IMG/VR virus record: IMGVR_UViG_3300021400_000113
Span: 40,932-104,931 of that record
DNA length: 64,000 bases
Strand: one strand, 5' to 3'
Source: a virus
Lineage: Duplodnaviria > Heunggongvirae > Uroviricota > Caudoviricetes
The translations under genes were made by a program, and so were the position numbers. This document shows, one piece after another, positions 859 to 62,660 of this stretch. Position 1 is the first letter of the stretch; each line of letters begins with the position of its first letter. Below the pieces are notes generated by a model that did not search any database, was not told the origin of the DNA, and was given only the letters and a program-made list of their open reading frames with translations.

Positions 859-934
859 CGCGGACAGGACAAGCGGTTAAGTCATGGGCCTCATAAGCCT
901 CAAGGACTGGGTTCGACTCCCAGGCCCGCGACCA
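859..934 (+). tRNA. tRNA with CAT anticodon (Met, fMet or Ile-lysidine type)
   Basis: Acceptor cgcggac pairs with gcccgcg with one mismatch. Anticodon loop ctcataa. T-arm ctggg-ttcgact-cccag. CCA is encoded. Confidence 0.45.
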
Positions 935-2744: not shown

Positions 2745-2820
2745 GCCTGAGCAAATGTGGAAAGTCGTATGTGCGGTTGGCTGACCTTAAAGCTAATTAC
2801 AATTTATGAGGTATACCGAA

Positions 2821-3354
2821 ATGATAAGACTAAAAATTCTACCCCCTTGGACAATTTTAGTCCGTAAATTAGAAGCTTTACTTGACGGTGATCCACAGAT
2901 TGCTTTTAATGTCAATTTTAGTGGGGAACATCCTACCGTTGCACTTTCTTGTAATAACGGAGATAAAGTTGCGGCTTTATAGCAAATTTTGCCTGAACAA
3001 ATTTTTTTTGGTAATGTAACATTGAAAATTATGATTGATGGTACTCCAAGTAATCGCGCTTTTACAAGTAAGGTTGAACTATTTGATACAGCGTTTAAGG
3101 GTAATCCAGCATATGCATATTCTGTATGTCCTGCTGAAGAAGGTTATCAGTGGATCGGCACAACTTATGTTGTATTTAATAATTGCGTAGTACAGTTCGC
3201 TGCGGACAACCTAAACGATTGTCATGGTATTATTAGTACTCTATATCAAGATATTGCGGATGAAATTCTAACTGGCCCAGCAACAGAAGGTGTTTTCTAT
3301 AATACTAATGTTGAGCGCGCGAATCTTGGTAAACCTCTTGGCGAATGGCCATAA
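2821..3354 (+). CDS. hypothetical protein; contains one in-frame TAG (2980-2982)
   Basis: ATG at 2821 is in the same frame as ORF 2989-3354 and separated from it only by TAG. Ends with TAA. Confidence 0.4.
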
Positions 3355-3692: not shown

Positions 3693-4109
3693 TGGCCTTA
3701 GACGGGTCAAACGATGTAGGCTTTTTCCCAGCTCATTGGGTTAAGTGAGCATTAAGAGACTTGCCCACGCCTCTTAATAATGCGTACCAGGGAAGCACGT
3801 GGCTACAACGGTTAATAGTAGCAATATGGCGAGGTAGACCAATTTGGCAGAGTCAAGAGACTTTAGTAAAATTGAGCACTAAATAGGAAACTATTTATGT
3901 GAATCGCGTCAAATTCGGTGAAACTCCTTACAGGACAATACCGAGCGAAGCCTTTTAGGAACGTGTAGAGACTTGACGGCGCGCACCTAAACAGAAATGT
4001 ATGGTGAAGATAAAGTCCAGACTACAACGCTATTGCGGCCATAGTAATATGGAGTAGTAAGAAAATCTCTGTAGTGTGGGTTCGAATCCCATCCTCGCTA
4101 CCATTTATG

Positions 4110-4185
4110 TCCTCGTAACAGAATTGGCATATGTATTCGGCTCAAACCCGAAGTTCTGTGGGTCCGACTCCCACCGAGGATACCA
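4110..4185 (+). tRNA. class-I tRNA with CAA anticodon (Leu codon UUG; short variable loop)
   Basis: Acceptor gtcctcg/cgaggat with a G-U pair. Anticodon stem ttcgg/ccgaa, loop ctcaaac. T-arm gtggg-tccgact-cccac. CCA is encoded. Confidence 0.45.
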
Positions 4186-4186
4186 T

Positions 4187-4264
4187 GTCCAGTTGGCGCA
4201 ATTTGGCAGACGCGCATGGTTTAGGCCCATGTTTTTGAAGGTTCAAATCCTTTACTGGACACCA
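4187..4264 (+). tRNA. class-I tRNA with TAG anticodon (reads CUA; short variable loop)
   Basis: Perfect acceptor gtccagt/actggac. Anticodon stem catgg/ccatg, loop tttaggc. T-arm gaagg-ttcaaat-ccttt. CCA is encoded. Confidence 0.5.
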
Positions 4265-5098: not shown

Positions 5099-5732
5099 AA
5101 ATATGTAAGAAAGGAAAACGAAATGTAAAAGACATTTTGTTTAGCAATTATGAACCAAGTGAAGATGTGCTAACCACACAGCTTGGGATACTTGAATAAC
5201 AGCCATACACTACGGCCCGGGATACTAGGCAAGTGCGGCCGCGAAACTAGTAATAGTTAGCGATAGTGGAGAAACTCCAAATGTTAAGAGTATGCGCCAA
5301 GTAATTTGCTTGAAAATGCACGATTCCTTACGGCGACATAATAGGAAGCCAGGTTAAGAGCCAGGCCAAATCCAGATAAGGTATTGGGGTGGTAGCCAAT
5401 ACAAACTCTGGAAAAACCACAAGTCGCTATGTCGATGAAAGCCAGAAATGGCATATAAGTAAGGTTTGCGGTTGGAGTAGCCCAATTTGACAGTAATTCT
5501 AATAATATTTGATACAGATATTGAAGATGCTGAATGGTTTGGGTGAAACTTAGAGGTAAGCAATCCTCTCTATTCTCGGCGCTTGGCGTGGGAATCGGAT
5601 GGTATAAGGTCGCTACTTATACCACAGCCCGGTTTTCAATAGTAGCATAATATTCAAGAAGAATTATGAGGTACGGCGAAGGTCGCAGTAATTGTTAAAC
5701 AAAGTGTCTTTTATATTGAAAAAGGATATAAA

Positions 5733-6423: not shown

Positions 6424-6504
6424 ATAGTGTTGCGAGCTTAGTCGCAGGAAAGTTACTACCCTAAGGCAACCGTTGTGAGTTTGGTGTTCAAAACTCTCAT
6501 ATGG

Positions 6505-6632
6505 GCGAGTAGCCAAGTGGTCAAAGGCATTGGAACCATAAATGAATCTAGTGACTAAGGTTCTAACAGCTACTTAATGGACTGTAAATCCAAGGCGAAA
6601 GCTACGCAGGTTCAAATCCTGTCCTCGCCCAT
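6505..6632 (+). tRNA. tRNA-like gene with ~50-nt insert inside the anticodon stem (terminal loop ctgtaaa, GTA)
   Basis: Perfect acceptor gggcgag/ctcgccc. Class-II D-arm gccaagtggtcaaaggc. ttgga...tccaa encloses about 58 nt. T-arm has ttcaaat. Confidence 0.35.
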
Positions 6633-6637
6633 TACAA

Positions 6638-6727
6638 AGGGGAGTGGTGTAACGGCAACACGCAGGTCTCTAAAACCTGGGCCTTCTGAGGGCGTCATTC
6701 TCGGTTCAAATCCGAGCTCCCCCGCCA
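6638..6727 (+). tRNA. amber suppressor tRNA (anticodon CTA, reads UAG), with a long variable region
   Basis: Perfect anticodon stem caggt/acctg with 7-nt loop ctctaaa, giving U33-CUA-A37. D-stem gtgt/acac. T-arm ctcgg-ttcaaat-ccgag. 3' end ctccccc-g-cca. Variable region is about 20 nt. Confidence 0.6.
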
Positions 6728-8060: not shown

Positions 8061-8132
8061 AGGTCGGTGGTGCAATTGGTAGCATAGCGGTCTCCAAAAC
8101 CGTTGATTGGGGTTCGAGTCCCTGCCTTCCTG
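8061..8132 (+). tRNA. tRNA-Trp (anticodon CCA); imperfect acceptor
   Basis: Anticodon stem gcggt/accgt, loop ctccaaa. T-arm tgggg-ttcgagt-ccctg. Acceptor aggtcgg/ccttcct has 2 mismatches, the same pattern as tRNA-His. Confidence 0.45.
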
Positions 8133-8136
8133 CTAT

Positions 8137-10022: not shown

Positions 10023-10099
10023 CGGGCATTCGTATATTGGTATGATTACGCCAGTCTTATAAACTGGTCAGGGTGGTCCGATTCCACCATGCCCGACCA
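10023..10099 (+). tRNA. tRNA-Ile (anticodon TAT, AUA-reading type)
   Basis: Perfect acceptor cgggcat/atgcccg. Anticodon stem ccagt/actgg, loop cttataa. T-arm ggtgg-tccgatt-ccacc. CCA is encoded. Confidence 0.5.
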
Positions 10100-10114: not shown

Positions 10115-10582
10115 ATGTGGTTTTTAAAGAAAAAAGAAGAACCAATTCAAACCTATGAAGAAAGACCAAAAGAATGCCAACATAAATGGCGTGATTTTGA
10201 TCCAATTATGAAATTTAGTTTTTATCCATATCATGAGAATGAGGATAAAAATAAAAAGGGACAATTAAAAATCAGCATGAAAGAAAGTTATGTTTGCTGT
10301 TTATGCTTAGATCGTGAAGATAGAACTTTGTGCTCTTGGGTTTTTGAAAATTTAACTCAAGAGGAAGCATATAAAAAAGTTCAAGACTTCAAAAAAGAAT
10401 ATGAAGGATTTTATAAGCCAGAAGCTAAAATTGAGGATGAAATTCTTGATATGCAATATAATATTGATCGTGAATTTTTACGCAATTTAGCTTTATATCA
10501 TCCCGAAAAGGTTGGTTCTAGTTTTCAATCTATCACTCGTGTTCCTACACTTTCTGAATTTAAAGGTGATAAAAATGCTTAA
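10115..10582 (+). CDS. hypothetical protein
   Basis: RBS aaaggag then ATG at 10115 (MWFLKKKEE...). The upstream part of ORF 10073 overlaps a tRNA. Confidence 0.5.
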   Translation: MWFLKKKEEPIQTYEERPKECQHKWRDFDPIMKFSFYPYHENEDKNKKGQLKISMKESYVCCLCLDREDRTLCSWVFENLTQEEAYKKVQDFKKEYEGFYKPEAKIEDEILDMQYNIDREFLRNLALYHPEKVGSSFQSITRVPTLSEFKGDKNA

Positions 10583-10889
10583 TTATAATTATAATAGCGC
10601 AGAAGGATGGCGGTGTCCCCATTGTGGCGCAGTAATGGCTCCTTGGTAGCCTTCTTGTATTAATTGTACTGGCAAGAGTTAGAGACCAATAGAATATCAT
10701 ACTGCTGCTCCAAATATTACTATTCAATCTGGTAAAACTAACGCAACTCCTAACACTATTACTTGGGCTAGTTCATTAGATAATTGTATTACCACTGATA
10801 AAACTATAAATTGTACTTTAACTTCAAACACTATAACTGCTCAAGATAAATTACGTACAACTTTAAAATCTGCTGGAATTGATATTTGA
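10575..10889 (+). CDS. zinc-ribbon protein (CPHCG...CINCTG) with two in-frame TAGs
   Basis: ATG at 10575 overlaps the upstream stop. Frame stays open through 2 TAG codons to TGA at 10887-10889. Confidence 0.35.
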
Positions 10890-11650: not shown

Positions 11651-11741
11651 GGGGAGGTACCCAAGTGGTTTAAGGGGGCTGCCTACTAAGCAGTTAGGCT
11701 AGGTAACTAGCGCGTGGGTTCAAATCCCACCCTCCCCGCCA
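11651..11741 (+). tRNA. class-II (Ser-like) tRNA with ACT anticodon
   Basis: Perfect acceptor ggggagg/cctcccc. D-arm cccaagtggtttaaggg. Anticodon stem gctgc/gcagt, loop ctactaa. Variable arm gctaggtaactagc. T-loop ttcaaat. CCA is encoded. Confidence 0.45.
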
Positions 11742-11742
11742 T

Positions 11743-11816
11743 GGGCGAGTAACCGAATTGGCATAGGTACCAGACTAAGAATCTGGGTTTTGAGGGTTCA
11801 ACTCCCTCTTTGCCCA
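11743..11816 (+). tRNA. tRNA with AAG anticodon (reads CUU; short variable loop)
   Basis: Acceptor gggcgag/tttgccc with G-U pairs. Anticodon stem ccaga/tctgg, loop ctaagaa. T-arm gaggg-ttcaact-ccctc. Confidence 0.4.
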
Positions 11817-11821
11817 TTTAT

Positions 11822-12161: not shown

Positions 12162-12431
12162 AAGCGTTTAGGCGATATCGCTCTGAGAACAACCACCCAG
12201 GCAGTGAGGGGAGATAAGATATTCGCGAACAAGAGCTCCTTAGCCCTCACAATTAAGACAGGCTTTTCGGGTTAACACAGCAAATTATTTCCGAAGTAGT
12301 ATAAAGGTAGTACACTGTGAATAAAACCTCAGAGATTTCGGTTCGAATCCGAACCCCCTGTCTGTCTTGGAATTGCGGTTGAAATCTTCGGATGAAACCT
12401 GTCCCGGAGGATGCGTCCAAAGGGATTTTAT

Positions 12432-12889: not shown

Positions 12890-13360
12890 ATGAAACCTAC
12901 ATTATATATTTTATGCGGGGCGCCAGGGAGTGGCAAATCAACCTTCGCCGCGAATTTAGTCCCTAATATTCATTGGGTCTCCCGCGATGCTACTCGATTT
13001 GAATTGGTTAAAGAAGAGGAAGAATATTTCTCTCATGAAAAAGAAGTATTTAATCGTTTTGTAGAACGAATTGTAATTTCACTACAAACTGGAGCAGATA
13101 CTATCGCAGACGCTACCCATTTAAACACCGCTTCCCGTAAAAAACTTACTAACGCGATTGATTCTTATTTTGAACTATATAATATTATTTATGTAATTTT
13201 TACTGCTTCCGCCGATTTATGCATCAAAAGAAATATTAATCGCGTGGGGCGCGAAAAGGTGCCAGAAGATGTAATTCGTAAAATGCGCGCTTCTCTTACT
13301 ATTCCTTATAATGAAGATGCCCGTGAAATTGGAAAATGGATTATTGAAGGAGAGGTTTAA
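12890..13360 (+). CDS. P-loop kinase, polynucleotide kinase (Pnk)-like
   Basis: N-terminal LYILCGAPGSGKSTFA Walker A resembles the T4 Pnk kinase domain. RBS aaaggag. Confidence 0.5.
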   Translation: MKPTLYILCGAPGSGKSTFAANLVPNIHWVSRDATRFELVKEEEEYFSHEKEVFNRFVERIVISLQTGADTIADATHLNTASRKKLTNAIDSYFELYNIIYVIFTASADLCIKRNINRVGREKVPEDVIRKMRASLTIPYNEDAREIGKWIIEGEV

Positions 13361-13620: not shown

Positions 13621-14244
13621 ATGAGCGAATATTTTATAACTAGTGACCTTCATATTAATCATGAACAAGAGTTTTTATATGGACCACGTGGCTTTACTTC
13701 TGTTAAAGAAATGAATGAAGCCATCGTTGAAAAATGGAACTCAATAGTTAAACCAGAAGATATAATTTATAATCTTGGCGATATAGCAATGAATGATATT
13801 TCAGGCGCGATTCCATATCTTAAACAACTTAATGGCTTTCAATGGTGGATTCGTGGCAATCATTGTACCTTAAATAAAGTAAAAAGAATTTGCGAAGAGT
13901 GTAAAAATATTTCACTCATTAGTAATCCAGAAGCCTCTTGGGCAACAATGTTTAAATACGGAAAAATTTATTGCTATCTTTCCCATTATCCAACTATAAC
14001 CGCAAATTATGATGAAAAACATTTTAACCAGCATGTACTAGCATTACATGGGCATACGCATCAGCAAGCAAATTTTATGTATCCAAATAATCCTTTTTGT
14101 TATCATGTAGGAATGGATAGTCATAATTGTACTCCGGTTTCATTAGATGAAATTATTTGCGAAGTGCGACAGCGCTGGCTTGATTTACAAGCTTTAAAAA
14201 TTCCAGTTGAAGATTTATATACTTATCCAATGAGAGGAGAATAA
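13621..14244 (+). CDS. calcineurin-like metallophosphoesterase
   Basis: Motifs DLHINH, GDIAMND, GNHC and HGHTH match the metallophosphatase signature. Confidence 0.7.
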   Translation: MSEYFITSDLHINHEQEFLYGPRGFTSVKEMNEAIVEKWNSIVKPEDIIYNLGDIAMNDISGAIPYLKQLNGFQWWIRGNHCTLNKVKRICEECKNISLISNPEASWATMFKYGKIYCYLSHYPTITANYDEKHFNQHVLALHGHTHQQANFMYPNNPFCYHVGMDSHNCTPVSLDEIICEVRQRWLDLQALKIPVEDLYTYPMRGE

Positions 14245-14245
14245 T

Positions 14246-14629
14246 ATGAAAGAAGAAACTCGAATTCGTCAGCAAGAATATAAAGTTTATGTTACTAACG
14301 ACGGAAAAGAATTTACAAGTAAACGAGACGCAGAAAAACATGAAGTAGAACTTATGCCAGAAAAACAAATTCCAAACTTCCCTATCACTTTAAGAGCAAT
14401 GGAAGAATGCGGACGCTGCTATAAAATAGAATCCGAAGCAGATTTAAATTATTTGACATACAAAGAATGGAAAATTGCTTATTATGATTATATAGGGCCC
14501 GGATGGTATATCGTAATTTCACGCGATGGTGGCGATTCAGAAGATTACTATACGATATTTCCTGCAAGTAATTATATTCAAGATCTTCAGCATGATTTAA
14601 ATGAATTAAAGGAGTTGGATACTAAATGA
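14246..14629 (+). CDS. hypothetical protein
   Basis: ORF of 127 aa. Confidence 0.5.
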   Translation: MKEETRIRQQEYKVYVTNDGKEFTSKRDAEKHEVELMPEKQIPNFPITLRAMEECGRCYKIESEADLNYLTYKEWKIAYYDYIGPGWYIVISRDGGDSEDYYTIFPASNYIQDLQHDLNELKELDTK

Positions 14630-15189
14630 AATCATTTCTTGCTGGTGCCTTTATTGCCTTAGGATGTTGTTTATATATAAGTATTCCAGATAAAATTATT
14701 GGCGCTATTTGTTTTTCAATGGGACTTCTAGGTATTAGAATATTAGGTTTAAACTTATTTACAGGAAAAACACAATTTTTCTTAAAAAAAAATTCTCCTT
14801 ATAAACCACAAGATATATTAATGATATTTGTTGATAATTGTTTCGGTGTAGCGTTTATTTTATTTCTTACTCGCTGGACTCCAATCTATACCGCCGCACA
14901 GACAATTGGGTTAGCTAAAAACGCAATTCCAATTTATACATTATTTTTCAACAGTATAATGTGTGGCATCTTAATGACTATTGCTACCTATAAAGATACT
15001 CCATTATGGGTAAGTTCTCTTGCGGTTTTAGCTTTTATCACGGCGGGATTTAATCACTCAGTAGCAGATACATTTTATTTTATAGCAATGGGTGGTTGGG
15101 TTGCTCCATTAAAAATATTAATTATAGCCTTGGGCAACTTAATTGGTGGTCGTCTCGCGGCCTTAACTATTAGATTAAAAGAAAATTAA
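14626..15189 (+). CDS. integral membrane protein (multi-pass)
   Basis: Several hydrophobic segments. Confidence 0.5.
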   Translation: MKSFLAGAFIALGCCLYISIPDKIIGAICFSMGLLGIRILGLNLFTGKTQFFLKKNSPYKPQDILMIFVDNCFGVAFILFLTRWTPIYTAAQTIGLAKNAIPIYTLFFNSIMCGILMTIATYKDTPLWVSSLAVLAFITAGFNHSVADTFYFIAMGGWVAPLKILIIALGNLIGGRLAALTIRLKEN

Positions 15190-15299: not shown

Positions 15300-15791
15300 A
15301 TGGCTATAAATAATTTAATACCTCCTAACCCACAACATGCGGTTTTAAAAAGAATTTATCCTTGGGATAAATATAATATTAATTTAATTCTCGAATGGTT
15401 ATATGAATAGGCATAGCAAACCGGATTCACTGGATCATTTGAAGAATTTAAATTACATTATGGGGAATATGTTGATTCTTTAGATATAGAAAAAATATAT
15501 GAAATTATCGGCCTTTATACCGAATCATATCATGTAACACCAACCGAAAATGAATAGGTTCTATTGACTAAAGATAAAATATTAAATCAAAATATAATAA
15601 TTAATCCCATTCCCTCAGAACTTATTCCGCAAGAATATTCTGGGGGATATTTAGTTACTCCTCTCCCTTATGTAGATCAAATTCTAAAAACAGAAAATAA
15701 AAAAATGACAGAAAATGTTGTGGTAGAGAAAATACCATACTATGAAACTAGTAATGCCGCTAATGGAAAAACAATTTATATTGGAAATTAA
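15300..15791 (+). CDS. hypothetical virion-associated protein with three in-frame TAGs
   Basis: RBS aagggggg then ATG at 15300. Frame is continuous with ORF 15564-15791 through 3 TAG codons. Ends TAA. Confidence 0.4.
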
Positions 15792-15803: not shown

Positions 15804-16412
15804 ATGGCTAATGAGTATATAAATAAAGTTATATACGGTGGAACTACTTTAATTGACTTAACTTCTGATGATATTACAGTATCTGACGTGCTAACAGGTA
15901 AAAAATTTCACTTACCTTCTGGTGCTCCAGCCACTGGTACATGCGCCTATGATGCTGACACATCTGACGCTACAGCTGTGGCAGCGGAAATTTTATCAAC
16001 AAAAACTGCTTATAAAAATGGTAGTAAATTAACTGGTACTATGCCAAATCGTGGTTCAGTAACTGGAACTATTTCAACCGTAAGTGGAGAATATACAATT
16101 CCACAAGGCTATCATGACGGATCAGGTAAGGTTAGTATCGCTTCTTCAGAGTAGGCTAAACTTATTGCAACTAATATTCGTGAAGGTGTAACTGTATTAG
16201 GGGTAACTGGTACTATGAATGGTAGTGAAAATGTTAAATCCACTGCCGCCTCAGTCACTCCTTATACGACCGCTCAAACAATTACTCCAACTGATTTAGG
16301 AGATTTTAACTCCATTACTCAAATTAATGTCGCAGCAATTGCGTACACAGAGACTGATAACGCAGCAGGCGGTAAAACTGTTACCATTGGTACAGTAAAT
16401 CCTAATAATTAA
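15804..16412 (+). CDS. tail fibre / receptor-binding-like protein, one in-frame TAG (16152-16154)
   Basis: ORFs 15804-16154 and 16215-16412 share a frame and are separated only by TAG. The N-terminal motif is paralogous to the next gene. Ser/Thr/Gly/Asn-rich. Confidence 0.5.
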
Positions 16413-19281: not shown

Positions 19282-20790
19282 ATGAATACTTTACTAAATG
19301 CGATGAAAAATGCTACTAATTATACTCACACCGAAAATGGAGCTATTACTCATGTTACTTCTAATTCCGCTCTACTAGACATGTTTGGTATGGGCGGTTC
19401 TATGCGCAATCGCTCTGATAATGATGTAATTTTTATGTTTAAAAAGGCATATGATGAAAATCCTGAATATGCCCTAAAGTGCTTATTTTATCTTCGTGAC
19501 GTGCGCGGTGGTCAGGGAGAACGTCGTTTTTTCCGCACTGTAATTAATTAGCTTGCTAATGAAAACAAGGAAGCGGTTATTCGCAATCTTGAGGCTATTC
19601 CTGAAATGGGACGTTGGGATGATTTATATTCTCTAATTGGTACTTCTTGTGAAAAGGAAGCATTAAACTTTATGCTTCATCAAATCACCCTTGACGCCGC
19701 AAGTAAGACTCCCTCTCTACTTGCTAAGTGGCTGAAATCTGAAAATACTTCTTCTGCGGAAAGTCGTCGTTTAGCCACTAAGACTCGTGAATATTTTGGA
19801 CTAACTCCTCGTGAATATCGTAAAATGCTTTCTAGTCTACGTACCAAAATCAATGTTCTTGAAAAGCTAATGTCTCAAAATCGTTGGGATGAAATCGAAT
19901 TTGATAAGATTCCTTCTAAGGCTGGACTTATCTATAAGAATGTTTTTGCTACTAAAGATGTAACCAAAGCTCGCTATGCGGCTTTTATGGCAAATAAAGA
20001 GACCAAGGTAAATGCTAGCGTACTAAATCCCGTAGATATCGCCAAACAAATTTTTTCCTCTAACTATGCCTCTAAGGTAGACCGTCTTGCTTGGGATAAA
20101 TATTGGGCAAATTTAAAAGACTATTACAATGGTCGTGAAGAACGCGGCATTGCCGTAGTAGATGTCAGTGGTAGTATGTATGGTACACCTCTATACGCCG
20201 CAGTATCTATGGGTGCTTATATCGCAGAACGTGGTAAGGGGCCTTTCCAGAATCACTTTATCACTTTCTCTGATAAACCTGAACTTGTTGAGTTCAATGG
20301 TATCGACCTTTATGATAAGTTCCGTCGCGCGGAAACTGCGAACTGGCAAGGTAGTACTAATGTTGAAGCAGTGTTTGACTTGCTACTTGATACCGCTAAG
20401 AAAAATCATGTGACTCAGGAAGAAATGCCTGAAACACTTTATATCCTTTCTGATATGGAATTTAATAGTTGTATGACTGATAGCACAGTTACTTACGATT
20501 ATTGGGGTCGTCCTCGCCGTAAGATTCTTGAAAATTCCGCAGAAGTAAATACTCTAATCGAAAAGAAAGCTAAGGAATGGAAGGCCGCGGGATATAAAGT
20601 ACCTAATGTGGTATTCTGGAATCTTGATGCGCGGCAAGATAATATTCCTGCAATTGGGGAAGGATTCTTTTACGTATCTGGTAATTCTATGAACGTAATT
20701 GAAAGTATTCTTTCTCGTACTCCTCCTAAAACCGCGACAGAATTAATGATGGACGTTTTAAACCGTCCTAGATATAGCAATATTCATTAA
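19282..20790 (+). CDS. vWA-domain protein (DUF2828/TROVE-like), one in-frame TAG (19549-19551)
   Basis: ORFs 19282-19551 and 19606-20790 share a frame across TAG. Has a MIDAS-like VVDVSGSM motif. Confidence 0.5.
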
Positions 20791-37361: not shown

Positions 37362-37583
37362 ATGAAATATAGTTTTAAAGAATGGATTAAAGCCGCGGGT
37401 ATGCGTGCTTTAAAAACTGTGGCTTAGACAGCAATTGCTACAATAGGAACTACTGCTGTACTATCTGATGTAAATTGGGCAATAGTAGGATCTTCAGCCG
37501 CATTAGCAGGTATTTTAAGTTTATTAACAAGCATAGCTGGACTTCCAGAACTTAAAGAACCACAAGAAGAAATAAAGGAATAA
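37362..37583 (+). CDS. holin-like small membrane protein with one in-frame TAG (37425-37427)
   Basis: RBS aaaggaggg. Sequence MKYSFKEWIKAAGMRALKTVA-[TAG]-TAIATIGTTAVLSD...SSAALAGILSLLTSIAGLP has two hydrophobic segments. Confidence 0.5.
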
Positions 37584-40737: not shown

Positions 40738-41607
40738 ATGGATAAATCCCCATTTAATTATGTTGGTAATAAATTTAAATAGTTACCGCAACTATTTTAG
40801 ATTTTCCCTACAGATATAAATAATTTTGTAGATTTATTTACAGGAGGAGCAGACGTAGCTACTAATATGATTTCACACGCTAATATCATATATGCTAATG
40901 ATATAAATAAATTTACAATAGATATAATGAAAGTTTTTTAGGAGAAATCAATTAATGAAATATTAAGGTTTATAGATAATCGTATAGCAGAATTTCAATT
41001 AAGTAAAACCAATAAAGAAGGATATTTAAAATATAGAGAATTATATAATAATGGAACTTATTCAACTCCATTAGATTTATTTACTTTAACACGATTTAGC
41101 TTTAATAATAATTTACGTTTTAATAATAATTGTTAGATGAACCAAGCCTTTGGAGCTAATCGTTCTTCATTTAATCCAGCTATGAGAAAAAATACAATTA
41201 AATTTCATAAAAATATTCAATCAATTATTTTATCATGTCAAAGTTTTGAACTATTTTCAATAAATAATTTAAATTCAAAAGATTTTATATATGTAGATCC
41301 TCCTTATTTAATTTCAGACGCTTATTATAACGTCGGCGCGAAAAATGCTGAATTAAGATGGGAACAAAAAGATGATTTAAAATTATTTGATTTTTTAAAT
41401 AAAATCAATGACAAACAAATTCCTTTTGCTATGTCAAACTTTATTCATCATAAAGGAAAAACAAATGAAAAGCTTATAGAATGGATAAATGATATGAAAT
41501 TGAATACTTATGATATTAATTCTGATTATTCTCATTGCATAGCAAATATAAATAAAAATGATAATCCTACACTTGAAGTAGTAGTGACTAATTATAAAAA
41601 GGAGTAA
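40738..41607 (+). CDS. Dam-like N6-adenine DNA methyltransferase with four in-frame TAGs
   Basis: ATG at 40738 is in frame with ORF 41137-41607. N-terminus FNYVGNKFK-[TAG]-LPQLF...FVDLFTGGADVA is a Dam SAM-binding motif. DPPY catalytic motif at YVDPPYLISD. Confidence 0.65.
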
Positions 41608-41613
41608 AATTAT

Positions 41614-41802
41614 ATGAATAAACAAAAATATGATAAGGCACAAGTATGGGAAGATATAATAACAGAATATTTCAATCGTCATCCTGATGCTGGCCTTGCT
41701 TGGTGGCAGCTTCCACTAGAAGAACAGCCCGAAGAATTTAAGGTACATATGTATGATATTATTTGGACATTTTTAAATAATAAGGAGGAAAATAATAAAT
41801 GA
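41614..41802 (+). CDS. hypothetical protein
   Basis: ORF of 62 aa with RBS aaaggag. Confidence 0.4.
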   Translation: MNKQKYDKAQVWEDIITEYFNRHPDAGLAWWQLPLEEQPEEFKVHMYDIIWTFLNNKEENNK

Positions 41803-42353
41803 AAATTTATTTAGCTGGTTCAATTTTTTATTATGGTGATGTACTTCGTAACACAGAATGGGCTAAAAAAATCCGTGAAGCAATTCCAAATGTAGATTTA
41901 TATAGCCCTATTGAAAATACAGCTATAAATGGAACTGAGGGGAAAAAGAAATTTGCGGGCTCACAAGAGATTGCGAATGGAGATAATATTCGTCTAAATA
42001 ATACAGATATTCTTGTGGCTTGTATTGATGGCGATATTCTTCCAGCAGGCACTTGCGCTGAAATTGGGAAATTTCACGAAAAAATTGAACGCGGCGATCA
42101 TAAATATATTGTTGGAATTTGTACTGATAATAGGCAAATGTTCTTAACTCACAGTGAAGCAAAAGATCAAGGCGGTGCGGCGGCACTTGGAGAACAGCAA
42201 TATAGTTATCAAAATTTATATGTTACAGGATTAATTAAACAAGGTGGTATTTTAGTATCAAATATTGATGAGGCTATCGAATTTATTAAAGGTAAAGAAT
42301 ATGAATTTAATACTGAAAACCCATTAACATATTGCGATCCAATAATTTTATAG
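41799..42353 (+). CDS. nucleoside 2-deoxyribosyltransferase-family protein
   Basis: MKIYLAGSIFY N-terminus is typical of the NDT/Rcl fold. RBS aaggagg. Confidence 0.55.
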   Translation: MKIYLAGSIFYYGDVLRNTEWAKKIREAIPNVDLYSPIENTAINGTEGKKKFAGSQEIANGDNIRLNNTDILVACIDGDILPAGTCAEIGKFHEKIERGDHKYIVGICTDNRQMFLTHSEAKDQGGAAALGEQQYSYQNLYVTGLIKQGGILVSNIDEAIEFIKGKEYEFNTENPLTYCDPIIL

Positions 42354-42371
42354 AAAATTTGTTTAAAAACT

Positions 42372-42602
42372 ATGGCAAAAGGAAAACCTATAATTTATTG
42401 TAATCAATTTTTTGCTAATAAACTAATTAATTCAATATTTAAATATACAACAACTAATAAAATAGAAGAAAAAGAAGAAGAAGAAGAAGAATTAGTAGAA
42501 GAAGGATACATAGGAAAATTTAGAGGAACTCCTGTTTATTTAATAAAACATTTTCCACAAGAAACTCCTTATGCTATTGTATTGCCAATGCTAAAGGAAT
42601 AA
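42372..42602 (+). CDS. hypothetical protein
   Basis: ORF of 76 aa with a Glu-rich stretch. Confidence 0.35.
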   Translation: MAKGKPIIYCNQFFANKLINSIFKYTTTNKIEEKEEEEEELVEEGYIGKFRGTPVYLIKHFPQETPYAIVLPMLKE

Positions 42603-48621: not shown

Positions 48622-48867
48622 ATGTTCGATGAAGAAAGAGTTATGAAAATTATTTAGAAATTAAATCAACAAATTTAGCAAGAATTAAGTGACTATAATA
48701 ATGATTATCGTCCTTTAATTTTAGCTTTTATTTTATATTGCAACCCAAATAAATAGAATAATGATAAATATAATTATGAAACATTTTGTAAAGTTTCTAA
48801 AATTATTAAAAGCAACAAAGAATTACAAGAAATTTTTATGATACGTATAGGTGAAATAAATGATTAA
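48622..48867 (+). CDS. hypothetical protein with three in-frame TAGs
   Basis: ATG at 48622. Frame is open through TAGs to TAA at 48865. Confidence 0.3.
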
Positions 48868-49171
48868 AAGTGAAGCACTTGAAAATTTAGATTGGTATTT
48901 TTCAGTTGGTGATGGATTTAACGCTGAAATTGTATCAGAAAGTTATTAGTTCATAAAAAAACGACTTGAAGACTCAGAGCAATTAACCGATACATTAATA
49001 AAAATTTTAATTTATTTATTTAATCATTATAAATAGGATTTATTTAAAAATTTTAATTGTAATGGTGATAATTGGATTGATTTATTAACTATTTATAATA
49101 AAATTGTAGATGAAATGAAAAAAGAAATGCCTGAACCTTGGTATAATTATGGAATAAAATTAAAAGATTGA
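48860..49171 (+). CDS. hypothetical protein with two in-frame TAGs
   Basis: ATG at 48860. Frame is open to TGA at 49169-49171. Confidence 0.3.
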
Positions 49172-56485: not shown

Positions 56486-56494
56486 GGTATGGTT

Positions 56495-56875
56495 ATGGAT
56501 GAAGGATATAGAAATTTAATGATTGAAATGTGTCGTAGCGCACAAGTCGCAGCTGAGCAAGTTATGGAATATGATAGAAAACATAACGATGAAAAGGGAG
56601 AAAAAGTTGCGGAGACAATGCGCGCAGATTATTAGAAATTAGAAGATAAATTATCTAATAAAGAAGTAATCACTAAAAATGATTATCTAAAATTAATGGC
56701 GGCGGCCTATATTGTAAGTAATAATCTTCAAGATAGAGTTAATACTTATAATAAAGTAATTCAAATGTATAAAATTGATATTATTCCAAAGTTAGGCCGC
56801 ATTACTGCTGAATCTTCTAATGATGAAGGGTGTGAAAAATTAGCTCATGAATTATTACAAACTGAAAAAGTTTAA
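56495..56875 (+). CDS. hypothetical protein with one in-frame TAG
   Basis: RBS gtgaggt then ATG at 56489 or 56495. Frame is open through TAG at 56633 to TAA at 56873-56875. Confidence 0.35.
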
Positions 56876-58472: not shown

Positions 58473-59471
58473 ATGGCTAATATTGATATATTTACTCTTG
58501 AGCCAAGTAAAATTTCAAGAGATTTAAAAGGTAAGTTTTTACTTATTTATGGTTTGCCAAAATCCGGTAAATCAACTTTTGGATCTTAGTTACCTCGTTC
58601 GTTGTTCCTTAATTTTGAACAAGGTACAAACGCATTAGCTGGTATTCGTAGCGTACCTATTCTTCGTTGGACAGATTTTAAAAAGGTATTAAGTTAGTTA
58701 AGAAAACCGCAAGCACGCGAAATGTATGATAGTATAGTTGTTGACACTGCTTCGATTGCTTGGCAACTATGCGAAGAATATATTAAACAGCGTGAGGGAG
58801 TAGATTCAATTCGGGATATTCCTTGGGGCCAAGGATGGAATATGCTAAAAACAGAATTTTCAGAGTGTTGGCGCGAAATTACCCTACTCGGTTTTGGCAT
58901 ATTATTTATTGCTCATAGTAAGGAAAAGCCCACAGAAATGCGCGATGAAGAAGGCAATCCTATTACAGCAGTCGCTCCCGATCTACCAAATAATGCCTAT
59001 ACAATCATTAATTCCATTGTAGACATTATTGGATACTTACAAGTTCAGATGAATCCGGACGGTACTTCTCAACGCTACCTATATACTCGTTCTACTCCAA
59101 CAGTATTCGCCGGTTCTCGTTATCAATATTTAGCGCCAAAAATTAAGTTTGGTTATAAAGAACTTGTAGAAGCAATTGGTGATGCAATTGATAAAGCGGT
59201 TGAACTTGATGGAGCAGAAGTAACAGATCATACTGAAATGGCACATATTGTAGATAGACCTTTCCAAGAAGTAATGGAAGAAGCAAAACGAATTTGGATC
59301 GGATATATAGAAAGTGCTGAAACAGAAGAAGAAAAAGAACGGCACTTAATGATTATGAAGGATATTATAAAGAAAGTATTTGGAACAGAAGATTTCAAAT
59401 TAAGTCAAGCCGTTCCTTCACAATCTAGTTTGGTCGAGTTGTTTATTGATGAAATGAAAAATCTTTCCTAA
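58473..59471 (+). CDS. Sak4-like / AAA_24 RecA-fold ATPase with two in-frame TAGs
   Basis: RBS aggagg then ATG at 58473. Walker A YGLPKSGKSTFGS. Frame is continuous with ORF 58722-59471 across 2 TAG codons. Confidence 0.55.
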
Positions 59472-60071: not shown

Positions 60072-61331
60072 TTGACATTATCAGATAAAGCTGCTTATCG
60101 TAGCGTTATCGGCAGTCTTATGCATAATCCACTTTTTTTTATAGAATATCCAGATATGGTGCCGACTGATTTTGATCAGGAAATAGCCCGTATTTGTTTT
60201 TTAATTATTAAAAAATTATATAATGAAGGCGCTGTAGTTATTACGCCAATAGAAGTAGATCAAGAAGTAGAAAGACATGAACGAACAGCAATAATATATA
60301 AAAGAGAACATGGTCTGGATTATATAAAAGATGCTTATGAGATTGCTGAACCGGGAAATTTCCCGTTATTTTATTCACGAGTAAAAAAGTGCGCATTATT
60401 ACGTCGCTTAAAAAAAGATAAATATGATATTAGTGAATTTTATATAGATGAAAAAGAAGCGGAGAATCCTTTACAGGAAGTAAAAGCACAAGAGCGATTC
60501 GAAGGTGCAACAATAGAAGAAATTTTAAATTCTGTTGAAGGAAAATACAATATTATAAGAAATGAGTTCTTAGCGGGTGGAAAAACAAAAGGAGATCCCG
60601 CAGAAGGTATATTTACATTAATTGAAGATTTAAAACAATCTCCAAGTATTGGCCCCGCATTAGAAGGAGATATTTTTAGTATGGCGTGTCGCGGAGCAAG
60701 AGCTGGATGTTTTTATTTAAAATCCGCCTCAACCAGTGCCGGTAAGACAAGAACTGCGGTATTTGATGCCTGTAAATTAGCATATCCAACAAGATGGTCT
60801 CATGAACTTGGAACTTTTGCCCAAGATGCATTTAAAACAACGGGGGAATTTGTTGAGCCACGAAAAGTTTTATTCATCGTTACAGAAATGGATAAAGTAG
60901 AATTACAAACAATTATGTTAGCGTATTTATCAGGAGTAGATGAAGATCATATTCTTAGAGGAGATTATGATATGGGAGAAGAAAGTAGAGTTAAATACGC
61001 GGCAAGAATTATTGAAAAATATAAGGGAAATTTTATTGTTGAAGAAATTAGTGATCCGAACTTAACAAATGTTGAAGCAACAATAAAAAAATATGCGACT
61101 ATTGATAAAGTAAAATATGTATTTTTTGATTATATACATTCAACCGCAAGTATGATTGGACAATTTGCTAAAAATAATATTCGTGAAGATAGTATTTTGA
61201 TGATGATGGCTAATCAATTAAAGCAATTAGCAAAAGATTATAATATTTTTATTTTTTCCGCAACACAGGTAAATGCTAATGCTATGATGGATGATGCAGA
61301 ATTTAAAAATGAAACCTGTATAAGGGGTTCC
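60072..61331 (+). CDS. DnaB-like replicative helicase, exon 1 (interrupted by intron)
   Basis: TTG start. DnaB N-terminal motif YRSVIGSLMHNP. Walker A SAGKT. ATQVNAN (DnaB SQLNR-like). Ends ...ETCIRGS immediately before TGA. Confidence 0.55.
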
Positions 61332-62319
61332 TGATAGTTGTGCCCCAAAAAACCCTAACCGCTTACCGGCGGGGTCGCAATAGCGGCTAACGAGGAAGTC
61401 CTAAAAATTTTTAGGATAATCTCGTGTCATGTAAGAAAATATCATAAATTAATTGTCGGAAAAATACTTATCTTATGACAGTAAGATAAGGAGGGATGCT
61501 TTATGGATAAAGTATCAGGAATATATGTAATAACAAATTTAATTAATAATAAACAATATGTTGGTTTATCAAAAGACTGCCATAAACGTTGGGCTGATCA
61601 TTATAATAAAAGTTATACTTCTAATAGAAAAGATGATTTAGAAAAGGCATTATACAAGGCAATGAAAAAATATGGCAGAGATAATTTTTCTTTTTAGATA
61701 ATCGAAGAATGTTCAGAAGATAAATTAGCAGAAAGAGAAATTTATTGGATTGAATAGCTTAATAGCTATGAAAAAGGATATAATGAAACTCGCGGAGGAG
61801 ATATATCAGGTCCAAATAATATTCACCTCGGAGAAGAACATGGAATGGCTAAATTAACAGAAGAAGAAGTTATTCAATGTAGAAATTGGTATAAAGAAGG
61901 AAAACGTAGTAAGGAGATATGGGAAAAATATTTTCAAAATAAAATTCAATATAGCGGATTTTAGAGAATGTGGCATGGAAAGACATGGAAACATATAATG
62001 CCAGAAGTTTTTGAAAATAATCCTCATCCGCGGAAAAAAGTAACTCCTGAAATAATATAGCAAATAAAAGATATGTATAATATTCAAAATATGAGTTGTG
62101 CTGAAATATACCATTATTTTGATGAAACAATTAGTAGAACTAGTATAAACGATTACTGTCATAATCGTAGATGATATTTTCTTAAGCGATGTATCGACTA
62201 TTCCCTTAATCGGGAAGTACAATAACTATTGGTACGTTATTGGAAACGGGTTTTCTTATCTAATTAGATAAGTAAGAAATAGTCAGTGCCATTGGTAACA
62301 ATGGAATAAACGGCAAAAG
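61332..62319 (+). mobile_element. putative group I intron in the helicase gene, carrying a GIY-YIG homing-endonuclease ORF
   Basis: ~1-kb insertion between helicase segments. Joining exon 1 (...CIRGS) to 62320 (IADKADMGFVM...) restores the conserved DnaB region (RESGSIEQDADvvmf). The insertion ends in G at 62319 and exon 1 ends in U. Confidence 0.45.
61503..62174 (+). CDS. GIY-YIG homing endonuclease with four in-frame TAGs
   Basis: RBS aaggaggg. GIYVITNLINNKQYVGLS GIY-YIG motif. Further YWIE-[TAG]-LNSYEKGYNETRGG. Frame is open to TGA at 62172-62174. Confidence 0.55.
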
Positions 62320-62660
62320 CCATAGCAGATAAGGCAGATATGGGTTTCGTTATGACGCGAATAAGTGAAAAAACTTGGAATAGCGTTGTTGGAAAATTTC
62401 GTATGGCGGCGCTGGAAGGAATAATAGATAAAGAAATAATTGATAATCCAGATAAGCGTCCAACACATATACTTGATATATATAAAATGAGACGCGGTCG
62501 TTATAAAAATGTAAGAATTTGGATTAGCTTACATCTTGGAACTGGTTATAGAAAAGATCTTATTATGACAACCGCGGATAATCAACCTATTGATAGAATA
62601 GATAAATTTAATACAACAGTTCCAATTCAGATTTCTAACTGGGCGGAGGAAATTAAGTGA
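62320..62660 (+). CDS. DnaB-like replicative helicase, exon 2
   Basis: Frame of ORF 62340-62660 extended upstream to 62320. ...IADKADMGFVM... and ...KMRRGRYKNVRIWISLHLGTG... match the DnaB C-terminal motifs. Confidence 0.5.

Follow-up and report, generated by a model that had tools for sequence, protein, structure and literature searches.

The phage DNA analysed here encodes a suppressor tRNA with two loops of anticodon type: one, in the usual place, carries CUA and reads UAG, and the other, in an enlarged variable arm, displays the glutamine anticodon CUG. This stretch of DNA, hereafter the window, is 64,000 nt long and comes from a large phage whose relatives occupy contigs as long as about 190 kb. 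A minority of the phage genes use TAG as a reassigned sense codon, and no gene ends with it; judged from codon alignments, TAG almost certainly stands for glutamine decoded by this tRNA. TAG-to-Gln recoding by phages that encode a suppressor tRNA has been described before. The design of the arm recurs across 73 unique CUA tRNAs from phages, their stems being unrelated, and the arm triplet matches the amino acid of TAG, CUG or UUG going with Gln and CCA with Trp. We propose natural pseudo-anticodon-arm suppressor tRNAs as a class newly set out here, in which the arm probably restores an identity signal lost when the anticodon became CUA.

In-frame TAGs number 62 in about 20 of the ~85 window genes, where they lie inside conserved domains (Table 1). 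Thirty of them are concentrated in the 810-aa and 957-aa genes; the product of the former had no Pfam or PHROG match, and neither of these two TAG-richest genes obtained a functional assignment, including tail fibre, from Pfam or PHROG. Relatives L190 and L191 have CAA/CAG, TAG or glutamine-like residues at the TAG sites of the 957-aa gene, and L190 also retains the Dam TAGs. In Dam, AAA_24, the holin, the GIY-YIG endonuclease and the DUF2828/DUF7788 gene, the TAGs are spanned by a single Pfam domain, and relatives align straight through the in-frame TAG positions of the window. The original prediction that a series of genes carries TAG in a continuous frame was therefore sound: these are single ORFs with TAG as sense, and the check it suggested, alignment of the TAG-interrupted ORFs to homologues as one protein, came out in its favour with both Pfam and the relatives. 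Its count of 10 TAGs for the 810-aa gene was right, that of ~21 for the 957-aa gene was one too many, and the supposed single gene at 48622-49171 resolves into two ORFs.

Table 1 Recoded genes and suppressor tRNA features of the window
Feature	Position	Strand	In-frame TAGs	Remarks
Gene	2806..3354	+	1 (2980)	Q or E in relatives
Gene	10401..10889	+	2-3 (10647, 10680, possibly 10488)	Relatives have Q and I
Two genes	15300..15791 and 15804..16412	+	3 and 1	PHROG unknown-function families only
Gene, 810 aa	16752..19184	+	10	Variable cassette, absent from relative L049
DUF2828/DUF7788 (vWA-like) gene	19282..20790	+	1 (19549)	Pfam
Gene, 957 aa	33948..36821	+	20	Full-length relatives L190 (56% identity) and L191 (41%)
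r1t-type holin	37362..37583	+	1 (37425)	PF16945 spans the site
Dam (D12 class) methyltransferase	40738..41607	+	4 (40780, 40798, 40939, 41134)	PF02086 spans all four
Nucleoside 2-deoxyribosyltransferase-like gene	41799..42602	+	1 (42351)	
Two small ORFs	48622..48867 and 48860..49171	+	3 and 2	
Gene	56489..56875	+	1 (56633)	Commonest residue in relatives Q (11/34)
AAA_24 (Sak4-like) ATPase	58473..59471	+	2 (58587, 58695)	PF13479 spans both
DnaB helicase gene, split	60120..61334 / 62340..62660		0	
GIY-YIG homing endonuclease	61503..62174	+	4	PF01541; within the insertion splitting the DnaB helicase gene
Suppressor tRNA(CUA)	6638..6727	+		90 nt; ARAGORN, Rfam, RNAfold, covariation
Anticodon stem CAGGT/ACCTG	6663..6667 / 6675..6679			
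Decoding anticodon CUA	6670..6672	+		Loop CUCUAAA 6668-6674; direct sequence, ARAGORN
Variable region	6680..6699	+		20 nt: 1-nt 5' linker, hairpin, 6-nt 3' linker GUCAUU
Extra-arm hairpin GCC-UUCUGAG-GGC	6681..6693	+		3-bp stem, 7-nt anticodon-type loop
Putative pseudo-anticodon CUG (glutamine anticodon)	6686..6688	+		Flanks U 6685, A 6689
Discriminator G73	6724			
Encoded CCA	6725..6727			

The window genes terminate in TAA (63) or TGA (22) and none in TAG, as had been claimed for the confidently called genes, and the codons that relatives align to these terminators are TAA 58, TGA 30 and TAG 0 (88 aligned). Stop triplets inside the alignments of relatives comprise 61 TAGs and 10 TAA/TGA, the latter all at the N-terminal edges of ORFs. 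If nothing were reassigned, pseudogenes, assembly errors or low-level read-through would have to account for the TAG-interrupted genes. This reading has virtually no probability left and is already refuted by the alignments of domains and homologues across TAGs, the lack of TAG terminators and the presence of a cognate tRNA; moreover, TAG sites are conserved or swapped with CAA/CAG among 48 relatives.

The original prediction also held that TAG is sense throughout and not a late-gene switch. Taken as a whole this was overstated, and the denial of a late-gene switch finds only partial support, since genes differ greatly in their use of TAG. No TAG occurs in either topoisomerase II subunit or in DnaB, primase, DNA ligase, RNA ligase, a PurZ-like enzyme, a dNMP kinase or RNase H. 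Set beside the late-gene model of Borges et al., the core replication enzymes lack TAG and the holin is recoded, yet Dam, AAA_24/Sak4 and the homing endonuclease are recoded as well, which argues against a clean early/late split. The late structural module is located outside the window. At the stop of the helicase ORF of the window, 37 relatives read on with AAA/AAG.

The amino acid had been left open, with Gln named as the precedent; codon alignment and substitution scores now settle on Gln and reject Ser, Leu, Tyr and Trp. BLOSUM62 sums over 32 window TAG sites were 66.1 for Q, 39.9 for E, 18.8 for K and 4.6 for S, with Leu, Tyr and Trp lower still, and over 81 TAG sites in relatives Q reached 116 and K 72. 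An empirical substitution model applied to 679 TAG sites of the family placed Q best and K 188 lnL units behind. Lys is found opposite TAG sites more frequently than opposite true Gln codons (26% vs 12%), and plain BLOSUM62 put Lys level with Gln in one subset, where the alignment-derived substitution model favours Gln. Residues were tallied from non-overlapping ORFs and later only from alignments of 25-65% identity. Because database translations made with TAG = Q would have rendered the comparison circular, P0001-P0003, which are homologues of the 957-aa protein, and the near homologues of the L247 protein were discarded; codons from DNA or distant homologues were used in their place.

Individual sites tell the same story. 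Among 47 relatives the two AAA_24 positions are occupied by CAA 16, CAG 20 and TAG 11 at one and by CAG 36 and CAA 11 at the other, so that every non-TAG relative has CAA/CAG at both. The holin site is Q in 120/120 homologues, bearing out the tentative suggestion in the original prediction of glutamine at this position in some holins. Two window sites are not Gln-like: 19549, an outlier with W/Y in relatives, and 40780, which is Leu in both T4 Dam and EcoDam.

The suppressor is confirmed as a tRNA. ARAGORN reported a 90-nt tRNA with anticodon cta, its 'Pyl' label reflecting the anticodon only, in agreement with the perfect caggt/acctg stem and CUA anticodon described beforehand. The Rfam tRNA model, the covariance check called for at that stage, accepted it with 52.1 bits against a gathering score of 29. 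RNAfold returned a cloverleaf with an extra hairpin (-31.0 kcal/mol), and in the covariation analysis of 38 homologues 94.2% were paired, compared with 70.5% after shuffling. The geometry is the standard 7/5 of acceptor and T-stem, backed by covariation, and the decoding loop CUCUAAA is invariant across the 38-sequence alignment.

The tRNA body is of Gln/Trp type, with a weak or mismatched 1:72 pair, G2:C71, G3:C70, G10:C25, G73 and a small D-loop. The 1:72 position of the window tRNA is an A1·C72 mismatch; among the 38 homologues it is mismatched in 19 and A-U/U-A in 18, while G2:C71 and G10:C25 each occur in 36 and pair 3:70 is G-C in only 19. The acceptor and core determinants of GlnRS in the set of PMC9976931 are present. 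As for the anticodon determinants, U35 is kept, position 36 is A, and the full C-U-G is found only in the extra arm. The departure from class I lies in the variable region, 20 nt with a hairpin rather than a 4-5-nt loop.

This region had been taken as Ser/Leu/Tyr-like, an attribution that did not survive: the D-arm and acceptor are of Gln/Trp type, and the arm is a mimic of an anticodon loop. A class II identity, with charging by SerRS, LeuRS or TyrRS and TAG as Ser, Leu or Tyr, is accordingly barely credible, even though the length of the variable region and a G73 like that of tRNA-Ser would fit. The D-arm has a 4-bp stem and a 7-nt loop (AACGGCA), unlike the tRNA-Ser and tRNA-Tyr of the window; the substitution data given above refute a Ser, Leu or Tyr meaning; and true type-II-body suppressors form a separate class with ordinary arms, in which TAG scores as Tyr. 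Three further identities were considered and rejected. tRNA-Pyl has a 3-nt variable loop, a 6-bp anticodon stem and G1:C72, against the 20-nt region, 5-bp stem and A1·C72 found here, and TAG sites align to Gln. tRNA-Sec and allo-tRNAs are at odds with the 7/5 geometry, which is not 8/5, 8/4 or 9/3. A small spliced intron as the source of the 13-20 nt insertion was dismissed: the introns of bacterial tRNAs are group I elements of large size, and conservation of an anticodon-like loop would not be expected of an intron.

The layout of the extra arm follows from direct sequence and the parsing of 95 CUA tRNAs. Its loop, UUCUGAG, is a copy of the anticodon loop of tRNA-Gln(CUG), and the hairpin is extendable through U·G and U-A pairs, leaving a CUG triloop. 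All three stem pairs covary in the homologue alignment, with changes on both sides.

The 73 unique long-arm CUA tRNAs span 40 different acceptor stems and carry the Gln triplet CUG or UUG in 70 arms and the Trp loop CUCCAAA in 3. An arm loop reproducing the cognate anticodon loop (N-U-NNN-A-N) was found in 73/73 of them and in 0/119 control type-II tRNAs, and U-YUG-A in 63/73 and 0/119, respectively; the collected sequences are related to one another, and p-values for these contrasts overstate their independence. Of 43 unique arms, 37 have U:A at 33:37; at 32:38, 21 have U:G and 17 have C:A. Scans in which the arm was not specified in the pattern returned the arm triplet design in 62/62 and 20/20 cases. 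CUG outnumbers UUG, which suggests that the host possesses a true GlnRS and does not depend on the GluRS/GatCAB route.

Relatives were best found with patterns that either used the arm sequence or left the arm unspecified; the anticodon stem-loop as an exact pattern gave one other contig, and a tRNA-flanking protein as query gave two. Deposited phage genomes yielded no relative in nucleotide searches, near or distant, that used 24 kb of the window, the tRNA region or an L053-type suppressor. A Bacteroidota-type long-arm query against deposited phages matched phAss-1, a published phage that carries a long-arm CUA tRNA of the same type.

Could the arm be a functionless relic of the origin of the suppressor, for instance of an anticodon-arm duplication in which one copy kept the old anticodon? 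The 5' half of the tRNA is identical to the phage's own tRNA-Gln at 15/18 nt, and the ancestral triplet would have been retained. Nevertheless, the anticodon stem is longer than the arm stem and has no sequence relationship to it, and the UG of the arm loop is invariant and its flanks nearly so (alignment A1) while every tRNA stem has turned over. Neutral sequence would not survive the divergence represented by 40 acceptor stems, and we regard a relic as very unlikely. An alternative fold that decodes with the extra arm, giving a two-headed tRNA that reads UAG plus CAG/CAA, is extremely unlikely. The arm of relative L137, a perfect 5-bp stem with a 7-nt loop CUCUGAC, would suit such a fold, but the stem comprises just 3 pairs in most arms, a variable arm lies in the decoding centre in no known ribosome-competent fold, and the phage already encodes a tRNA-Gln(UUG).

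The reading we prefer, a pseudo-anticodon that informs the synthetase, is consistent with the agreement between arm and code. At YUG-arm loci of other lineages Q scored best over 355 sites in 70 loci, and phAss-1, which bears a YUG-type long-arm tRNA, is a phage whose authors showed TAG = Gln (PMC10607447). At CCA-arm loci W scored best over 10 sites with Y 17 lnL units behind, the homing endonuclease TAG sites gave W 30.7 vs Q -11, and TAG sites of a third protein align to Y, Y/F and W; this Trp side of the correlation consists of one phage lineage (L247/L251), with 3-4 loci and about 13 sites. A description of TAG-to-Trp in phages was not found in the literature searched. Database proteins P0004-P0010 have Q where homologues have W or Y, and gene callers assuming TAG = Gln appear to mistranslate at least this one phage lineage, in which TAG looks like Trp.

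As a more general scheme, to which we give even chances, these would be two-anticodon suppressors: the CUA arm would read the stop on the ribosome and a portable second arm would tell the synthetase what to load, a change from CUG/UUG to CCA setting Gln or Trp. Where the synthetase tolerates CUA, as TyrRS does, the arm would not be needed, and TAG there appears to be Tyr.

We hypothesize that a switch of the real anticodon to CUA deprives the tRNA of a determinant, G36 for GlnRS or C35 for TrpRS, and that the resulting body would be ambiguous between GlnRS, TrpRS and possibly LysRS. The arm would then present the lost anticodon bases to the host synthetase and allow efficient charging with one defined amino acid, and the charged suppressor would compete with release factor 1 for UAG. 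The window proteins scanned included neither a GlnRS nor a release factor nor any other translation factor, and, except for the two large proteins of unassigned function, no window ORF was big enough to have escaped notice. Two features count against the mechanism: the variable arm exits the tRNA core far from the usual contact between anticodon and GlnRS, and the extra-arm stem is only 3-5 bp. GlnRS recognizes U35, G36, pairs 1-72 and 3-70, the discriminator and pair 10-25, and anticodon mutations cost up to 10^4-10^5 in kcat; TrpRS needs C34, C35 and A36, and tRNA-Trp(CUA) is charged with Gln (PMC9976931).

It is possible, if unlikely, that the arm is irrelevant to identity and that a Gln-like acceptor stem is enough for host GlnRS to charge any CUA tRNA, as it does supE and su+7. 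The arm would then serve stability, processing, nuclease protection, competition with RF1 or binding of a phage protein. supE and su+7 are charged by GlnRS with no extra arm (PMC9976931), and armless amber suppressors are readily glutaminylated (PMC9976931; Borges et al.). Many phages have a normal-size CUA tRNA beside the long-arm one, and suppression therefore does not strictly depend on the arm. The RNA-repair set of the window (kinase, phosphatase, RlaP and RNA ligase) suggests pressure from tRNA-cleaving defences. What this alternative leaves unexplained is a Gln anticodon set in anticodon-loop register on unrelated stems, and the reading of TAG as Trp by the single lineage whose arm bears a Trp anticodon loop.

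TAG-to-Gln 'code 15' phages are known among crAss-like, Lak, Garnet/Agate and other clades and in phAss-1 (10.1101/2021.08.26.457843; PMC9523058; PMC10607447). They share with the window in-frame TAG as Gln, a Sup-CTA tRNA, TAA/TGA terminators, low GC (34%) and an uneven use of TAG that spares core replication genes; the window differs in being without a near relative in the deposited phage collection. The structure and charging of the suppressor tRNAs are not described in these reports: 'variable arm' has 0 occurrences in Borges et al. (10.1101/2021.08.26.457843) and 'variable' 0 in the phAss-1 paper, and Borges et al. state the charging mechanism as an open question. If the pseudo-anticodon reading is true, it would supply the missing mechanism by which host enzymes charge the suppressors of recoded phages, and would add a new natural class of tRNA identity element.

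Full-text literature searches returned no natural pseudo-anticodon arm and no long-arm tRNA-Gln(CUA), only an engineered precedent. Mukai 2020 (PMC7590224) made an amber suppressor whose V-arm pseudo-anticodon mimics an anticodon arm and recruits a synthetase anticodon-binding domain, with modest effect. That system is synthetic, built on an allo-tRNA chassis with a HisRS fused to an extra anticodon-binding domain; the phage arm, in contrast, occurs widely in nature and would need to function with the GlnRS or TrpRS of the host in unmodified form. The classical suppressors supE (tRNA-Gln CUA) and su+7 (tRNA-Trp CUA) share a Gln/Trp-type body and the CUA anticodon and receive Gln from GlnRS via U35 and the acceptor stem (PMC9976931), but are class I tRNAs of 75-76 nt with a 4-5-nt variable loop in place of the 20-nt region and its structured, conserved arm. 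Class II tRNAs (Ser, Leu, bacterial Tyr), tRNA-Sec and allo-tRNAs have a long variable arm, and tRNA-Ser and tRNA-Sec have G73; they differ in D-arm, 7/5 geometry, conserved arm loop and the decoding of Gln. The thrS operator and the TYMV TLS (PMC9976931) are comparable mimics, in which a synthetase reads a hairpin that reproduces a cognate anticodon loop. Those elements regulate translation or tag viral RNAs, whereas the phage mimic would act inside an elongator tRNA, beside a different real anticodon.

On the same reading, the arm of a suppressor tRNA could directly predict the code of a phage. For synthetic biology it would offer a compact natural module that sets suppressor identity with the anticodon untouched; such modules have so far been attempted only by design (PMC7590224). 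Hints of the host of the window phage come from its r1t-type holin and from the presence of similar tRNAs on contigs binned with Bacillota genomes.

Genes in the window read continuously through TAG. With TAG taken as a sense codon, each gene named in the original prediction is a single ORF on the + strand, and one Pfam domain spans the TAGs in each of Dam, AAA_24, the r1t holin, GIY-YIG, and DUF2828/DUF7788, which bears out the claim of in-frame TAGs within continuous genes. The exception is 48622-49171, put forward as one recoded gene, where TAG does read as sense but the stretch comprises two ORFs. In-frame TAGs total 62 and are spread over about 20 of the window's roughly 85 genes; the late structural module falls outside it. 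As predicted, many lie in the gene for a 957-aa protein, although they number 20 rather than 21, and genes end in TAA (63) or TGA (22). TAG use is highly uneven, with 30 of the 62 in two genes, and Pfam and PHROGs searches assigned no function to the TAG-richest genes, whose tail-fibre label is only putative. No TAG occurs in the genes for topoisomerase II (both subunits), DnaB, primase, DNA ligase, RNA ligase, a PurZ-like enzyme, a dNMP kinase, RNase H, or a tail protein. The view that TAG is sense throughout, and not a late-gene switch, is partly supported: Dam, AAA_24, and homing endonuclease genes are recoded, but it must be tempered by this unevenness and by the TAG-free core replication enzymes. 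The distribution resembles the pattern of Borges et al., in which early genes stay compatible with the standard code, but differs in that the early/late split is not clean, the holin being recoded along with those three genes.

A search for relatives among 50,697 deposited phage genomes found nothing similar. The AAA_24 protein retrieved 48 related IMG/VR loci (82-89% identity, contigs up to about 190 kb), and two more distant syntenic loci (56% and 41% identity) carry a counterpart of the 957-aa protein, for which DNA codons were used because the database proteins there are translated with TAG as Q. Opposite the AAA_24 TAG sites, relatives carry CAA (16), CAG (20), or TAG (11) at one and CAG (36) or CAA (11) at the other, and the relatives' own in-frame TAGs lie mostly opposite Q in the window. 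In tallies restricted to real genes, BLOSUM62 sums were highest for Q at the window TAG sites (n = 32; Q 66.1, E 39.9, K 18.8, S 4.6) and at those of relatives (n = 81; Q 116, K 72, E 68). Q was also best under an empirical substitution model over 679 TAG sites of the window family, with K 188 lnL units behind. The holin site, tentatively predicted to be Gln, is Q in 120 of 120 distant homologues. At window-aligned terminators, relatives have TAA 58 times, TGA 30 times, and TAG 0 times. By these residue tallies and aligned terminators, TAG encodes glutamine in this family of phages and does not act as a stop. Two sites depart from Gln: 19549 (DUF2828) is W/Y in relatives, and 40780, the first Dam site, is Leu in both T4 Dam and EcoDam. 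Lys stands opposite 26% of TAG sites versus 12% of true Gln codons, an excess that may stem from AAG-to-TAG mutation.

ARAGORN places 25 tRNA genes within the window's first 12.5 kb, among them the predicted CUA tRNA, which the Rfam tRNA model also recovers; its ARAGORN label 'Pyl' is a consequence of the anticodon alone. This suppressor has a D-arm with a 4-bp stem and 7-nt loop, a standard 5-bp T-arm, discriminator G, and an encoded CCA. Its 5' half (AGGGGAGTGGTGTAACGG) is identical at 15 of 18 positions to that of the phage's own tRNA-Gln(UUG) (AGGCGAGTAGTCTAACGG), with which it shares G73, and its D-arm differs from those of the window tRNA-Ser and tRNA-Tyr. The body combines the A1·C72 mismatch with G2:C71, G3:C70, G10:C25, and G73; such features, including a weak 1:72 pair, are E. 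coli GlnRS determinants and are near those of TrpRS (PMC9976931). The variable region had been described as Ser/Leu/Tyr-like, a reading contradicted by the Gln match, the D-arm, and the CUG in its arm loop.

That arm is a hairpin whose 7-nt loop is laid out as an anticodon loop, with the glutamine anticodon CUG at 34-36, U before it, and A after it. On its 3' side the arm is followed by a linker of 6-7 nt. In the orthologue from comparison locus L050, the acceptor, anticodon, and T stems carry compensatory changes and the arm is identical. Three scans were run: viral contigs with the arm sequence itself as pattern, viral contigs with only CTCTAAA, a long spacer, and a T-loop, and metagenome contigs with these last elements plus a D-loop. 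Combined, they yielded 95 parsed unique CUA tRNAs. In fifteen of them the variable region is 12-18 nt long, the body is class II, and the arm is ordinary. A variable region of at least 19 nt goes with a Gln/Trp-type body in all 73 cases (40 acceptor stems, 46 arms), and the arm loops of these 73 read U-CUG-A in 53, U-UUG-A in 10, CUG or UUG with one flank altered in 7, and CUCCAAA in 3. Anticodon-loop arms make up 62 of 62 when only arm-agnostic scans are counted and 20 of 20 in the fully unconstrained scan; U-YUG-A occurs in 0 of 119 ordinary class II tRNAs of the same loci. Across 38 diverse sequences, 94.2% of cells are paired versus 70.5% when shuffled (0 of 500 shuffles reach 94.2%), with both-sided changes at all three pairs of the arm stem and an invariant UG in the arm loop. 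By these sequence comparisons, the extra arm is a conserved module. Of 43 arms, 37 have U:A at loop positions 33:37, and 32:38 are U:G or C:A; in the GlnRS complex of Rould et al. from 1991, pairs at 32:38 and 33:37 reportedly lengthen the stem and bases 34-36 are splayed out.

CUCCAAA is the exact anticodon loop of tRNA-Trp, including the window tRNA-Trp at 8061-8133. Were identity set by the arm, TAG would therefore be expected to mean Trp in phages that carry this loop. In two GIY-YIG endonucleases of such CCA-arm loci, TAGs fall at canonical Trp positions (8 sites; W 30.7, Y 7.5, Q -11), and in a third protein, 43 distant homologues place Y, Y/F, and W opposite the three TAGs, the Q of close homologues being an artefact. 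When 5,554 ORFs from 284 loci were compared all against all and scored by the empirical substitution model, Trp came out best for the CCA arm (10 TAG sites; runner-up Tyr, -17 lnL), Gln for CUG/UUG arms of other lineages (355 sites, 70 loci; Lys, -106 lnL), and Tyr for the class II body (20 sites, 7 loci; Trp, -14 lnL). On these alignments the Trp prediction held, and the class II result suggests a TAG-to-Tyr code of supF type. Class II-body CUA suppressors (Ser/Tyr/Leu-type, ordinary arms) occur, for example, in L072, L081, L100, L110, L134, and L147, and a 71-nt UCA (TGA suppressor) tRNA is also present in the CCA-arm loci L251 and L278. Public gene calls for a homologue of the 957-aa protein (P0001) and for relatives of an L247 protein (P0004-P0010) render TAG as Q (code 15), a translation that is probably wrong for the CCA-arm lineage, with W, Y, or F at those positions in distant homologues.

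GlnRS binding and recognition depend in part on G36, and kcat drops by up to 10^4-10^5 when the anticodon is mutated; TrpRS requires C34, C35, and A36, and tRNA-Trp with CUA receives Gln (PMC9976931). Given these needs and this mischarging, a Gln/Trp-type body with CUA would be a poor and ambiguous substrate. We hypothesize that an arm showing the missing anticodon would restore charging efficiency and fix amino-acid identity. Because the anticodon is not read by SerRS or LeuRS, and CUA is tolerated by TyrRS (as in supF), class II suppressors would need no such decoy, in keeping with the classes observed. The B. subtilis-type GluRS depends on modified U34 (PMC9976931), and the fact that CUG arms outnumber UUG arms points to a true GlnRS in the hosts.

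Recoding with a Sup-CTA tRNA is already known; Borges et al. declared its charging mechanism unknown and proposed that GlnRS is intrinsically permissive (10.1101/2021.08.26.457843). In the searchable full-text literature we found no natural pseudo-anticodon arm, only an engineered one that required a HisRS fusion protein (PMC7590224), and no description of TAG-to-Trp in phages; a 2020 review of non-canonical tRNAs does not include long-arm tRNA-Gln(CUA). Phage phAss-1, whose authors showed TAG to be Gln and left the arm unmentioned, has Sup-CTAs of 72 and 88 nt side by side (OQ749652, 62445-62610), the long one with arm CCC-UCUGAA-GGG. A CUA tRNA of normal size (72-75 nt) sits 5-6 nt upstream of the long-arm tRNA in many large phages, as in L053, L057, L058, L063, L064, L068, and L186.

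Features of the window and, where a locus is named, of comparison loci
Feature	Coordinates	Strand	Remarks
Suppressor tRNA, 90 nt, anticodon CTA	6638-6727	+	ARAGORN; Rfam tRNA model 52.1 bits (gathering score 29)
Suppressor acceptor stem	6638-6644/6717-6723	+	A1·C72 mismatch
Suppressor anticodon	6670-6672	+	stem CAGGT/ACCTG, loop CUCUAAA
Suppressor variable region, 20 nt	6680-6699	+	from sequence
Variable-region hairpin	6681-6693	+	GCC-UUCUGAG-GGC; from sequence
CUA tRNA, CUCCAAA arm loop	L247 5673-5767	-	5-6 bp arm stem
CUA tRNA, CUCCAAA arm loop	L251 6819-6911	-	5-6 bp arm stem
CUA tRNA, CUCCAAA arm loop	L252 1831-1925	-	5-6 bp arm stem
CUA tRNA, CUCCAAA arm loop	L278 1072-1164	+	5-6 bp arm stem
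TAG-rich gene	16752-19184	+	10 in-frame TAGs
TAG-rich gene, 957-aa protein	33948-36821	+	20 in-frame TAGs
tRNA-Leu(UAA)	3828-4103	+	198-nt group I intron in anticodon loop; ARAGORN with introns
Intron_gpI	3854-4038	+	Rfam, 58.3 bits
ROOL RNA, full-length	5131-5705	+	Rfam RF03087, 323 bits
tRNA-Tyr(GUA)-like gene	6503-6631	+	47-nt insertion between positions 32 and 33; Rfam only 30 bits
tRNA-Ile(UAU)	10023-10099		unusual anticodon
tRNA-Ser(ACU)	11651-11741		unusual anticodon
tRNA-Leu(AAG)	11742-11817		unusual anticodon
tRNA-like match	859-931	+	Rfam, 43.5 bits
tRNA-like match	12296-12354	+	Rfam, 29.7 bits
AAA_33 kinase	12890-13360
Metallophosphoesterase	13621-14244
RlaP-family nucleotidyltransferase	21468-22262
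RNA ligase	26219-27445
Formate/nitrite-transporter-like protein	14626-15189	+	PF01226, E 4.5e-19
Adenylosuccinate-synthetase homologue	30049-31131	+	PHROG 1211 ('2-aminooxy adenylosuccinate synthetase'), E 1e-36

The ROOL RNA lies within the tRNA array and precedes the suppressor by about 1 kb, and the tRNA-Tyr(GUA)-like gene, kept in comparison locus L049, ends 7 nt upstream of it; the insertion in that gene falls short of group I intron size. Bacterial tRNA-Leu normally has a long variable arm, and all four in the window (4109-4185, 4187-4264, 11742-11817, and the exons of 3828-4103) are 76-78 nt and without one. In other loci, several tRNA-Ile(UAU) carry a long variable arm whose loop displays GAU, the usual Ile anticodon (CAGAUUA in two, CGAUAAA in one), and may apply the same decoy principle to IleRS. 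Neither of the two tRNA-like matches was called by ARAGORN, with introns allowed or not.

The AAA_33 kinase, metallophosphoesterase, RlaP-family protein, and RNA ligase form an apparent RNA-repair set, consistent with protection of phage tRNAs from host anticodon nucleases. The adenylosuccinate-synthetase homologue, whose L190 orthologue matches Pfam Adenylsucc_synt, resembles PurZ, which may mean that 2-aminoadenine is present in the genome. The DnaB-like helicase gene (60120-62660, +) is interrupted by an insertion with a GIY-YIG endonuclease, with no match there to an intron RNA family; at the stop of the window ORF (61332-61334), 37 relatives continue with AAA/AAG. The formate/nitrite-transporter-like gene, unusual in a phage, adjoins the tRNA array.
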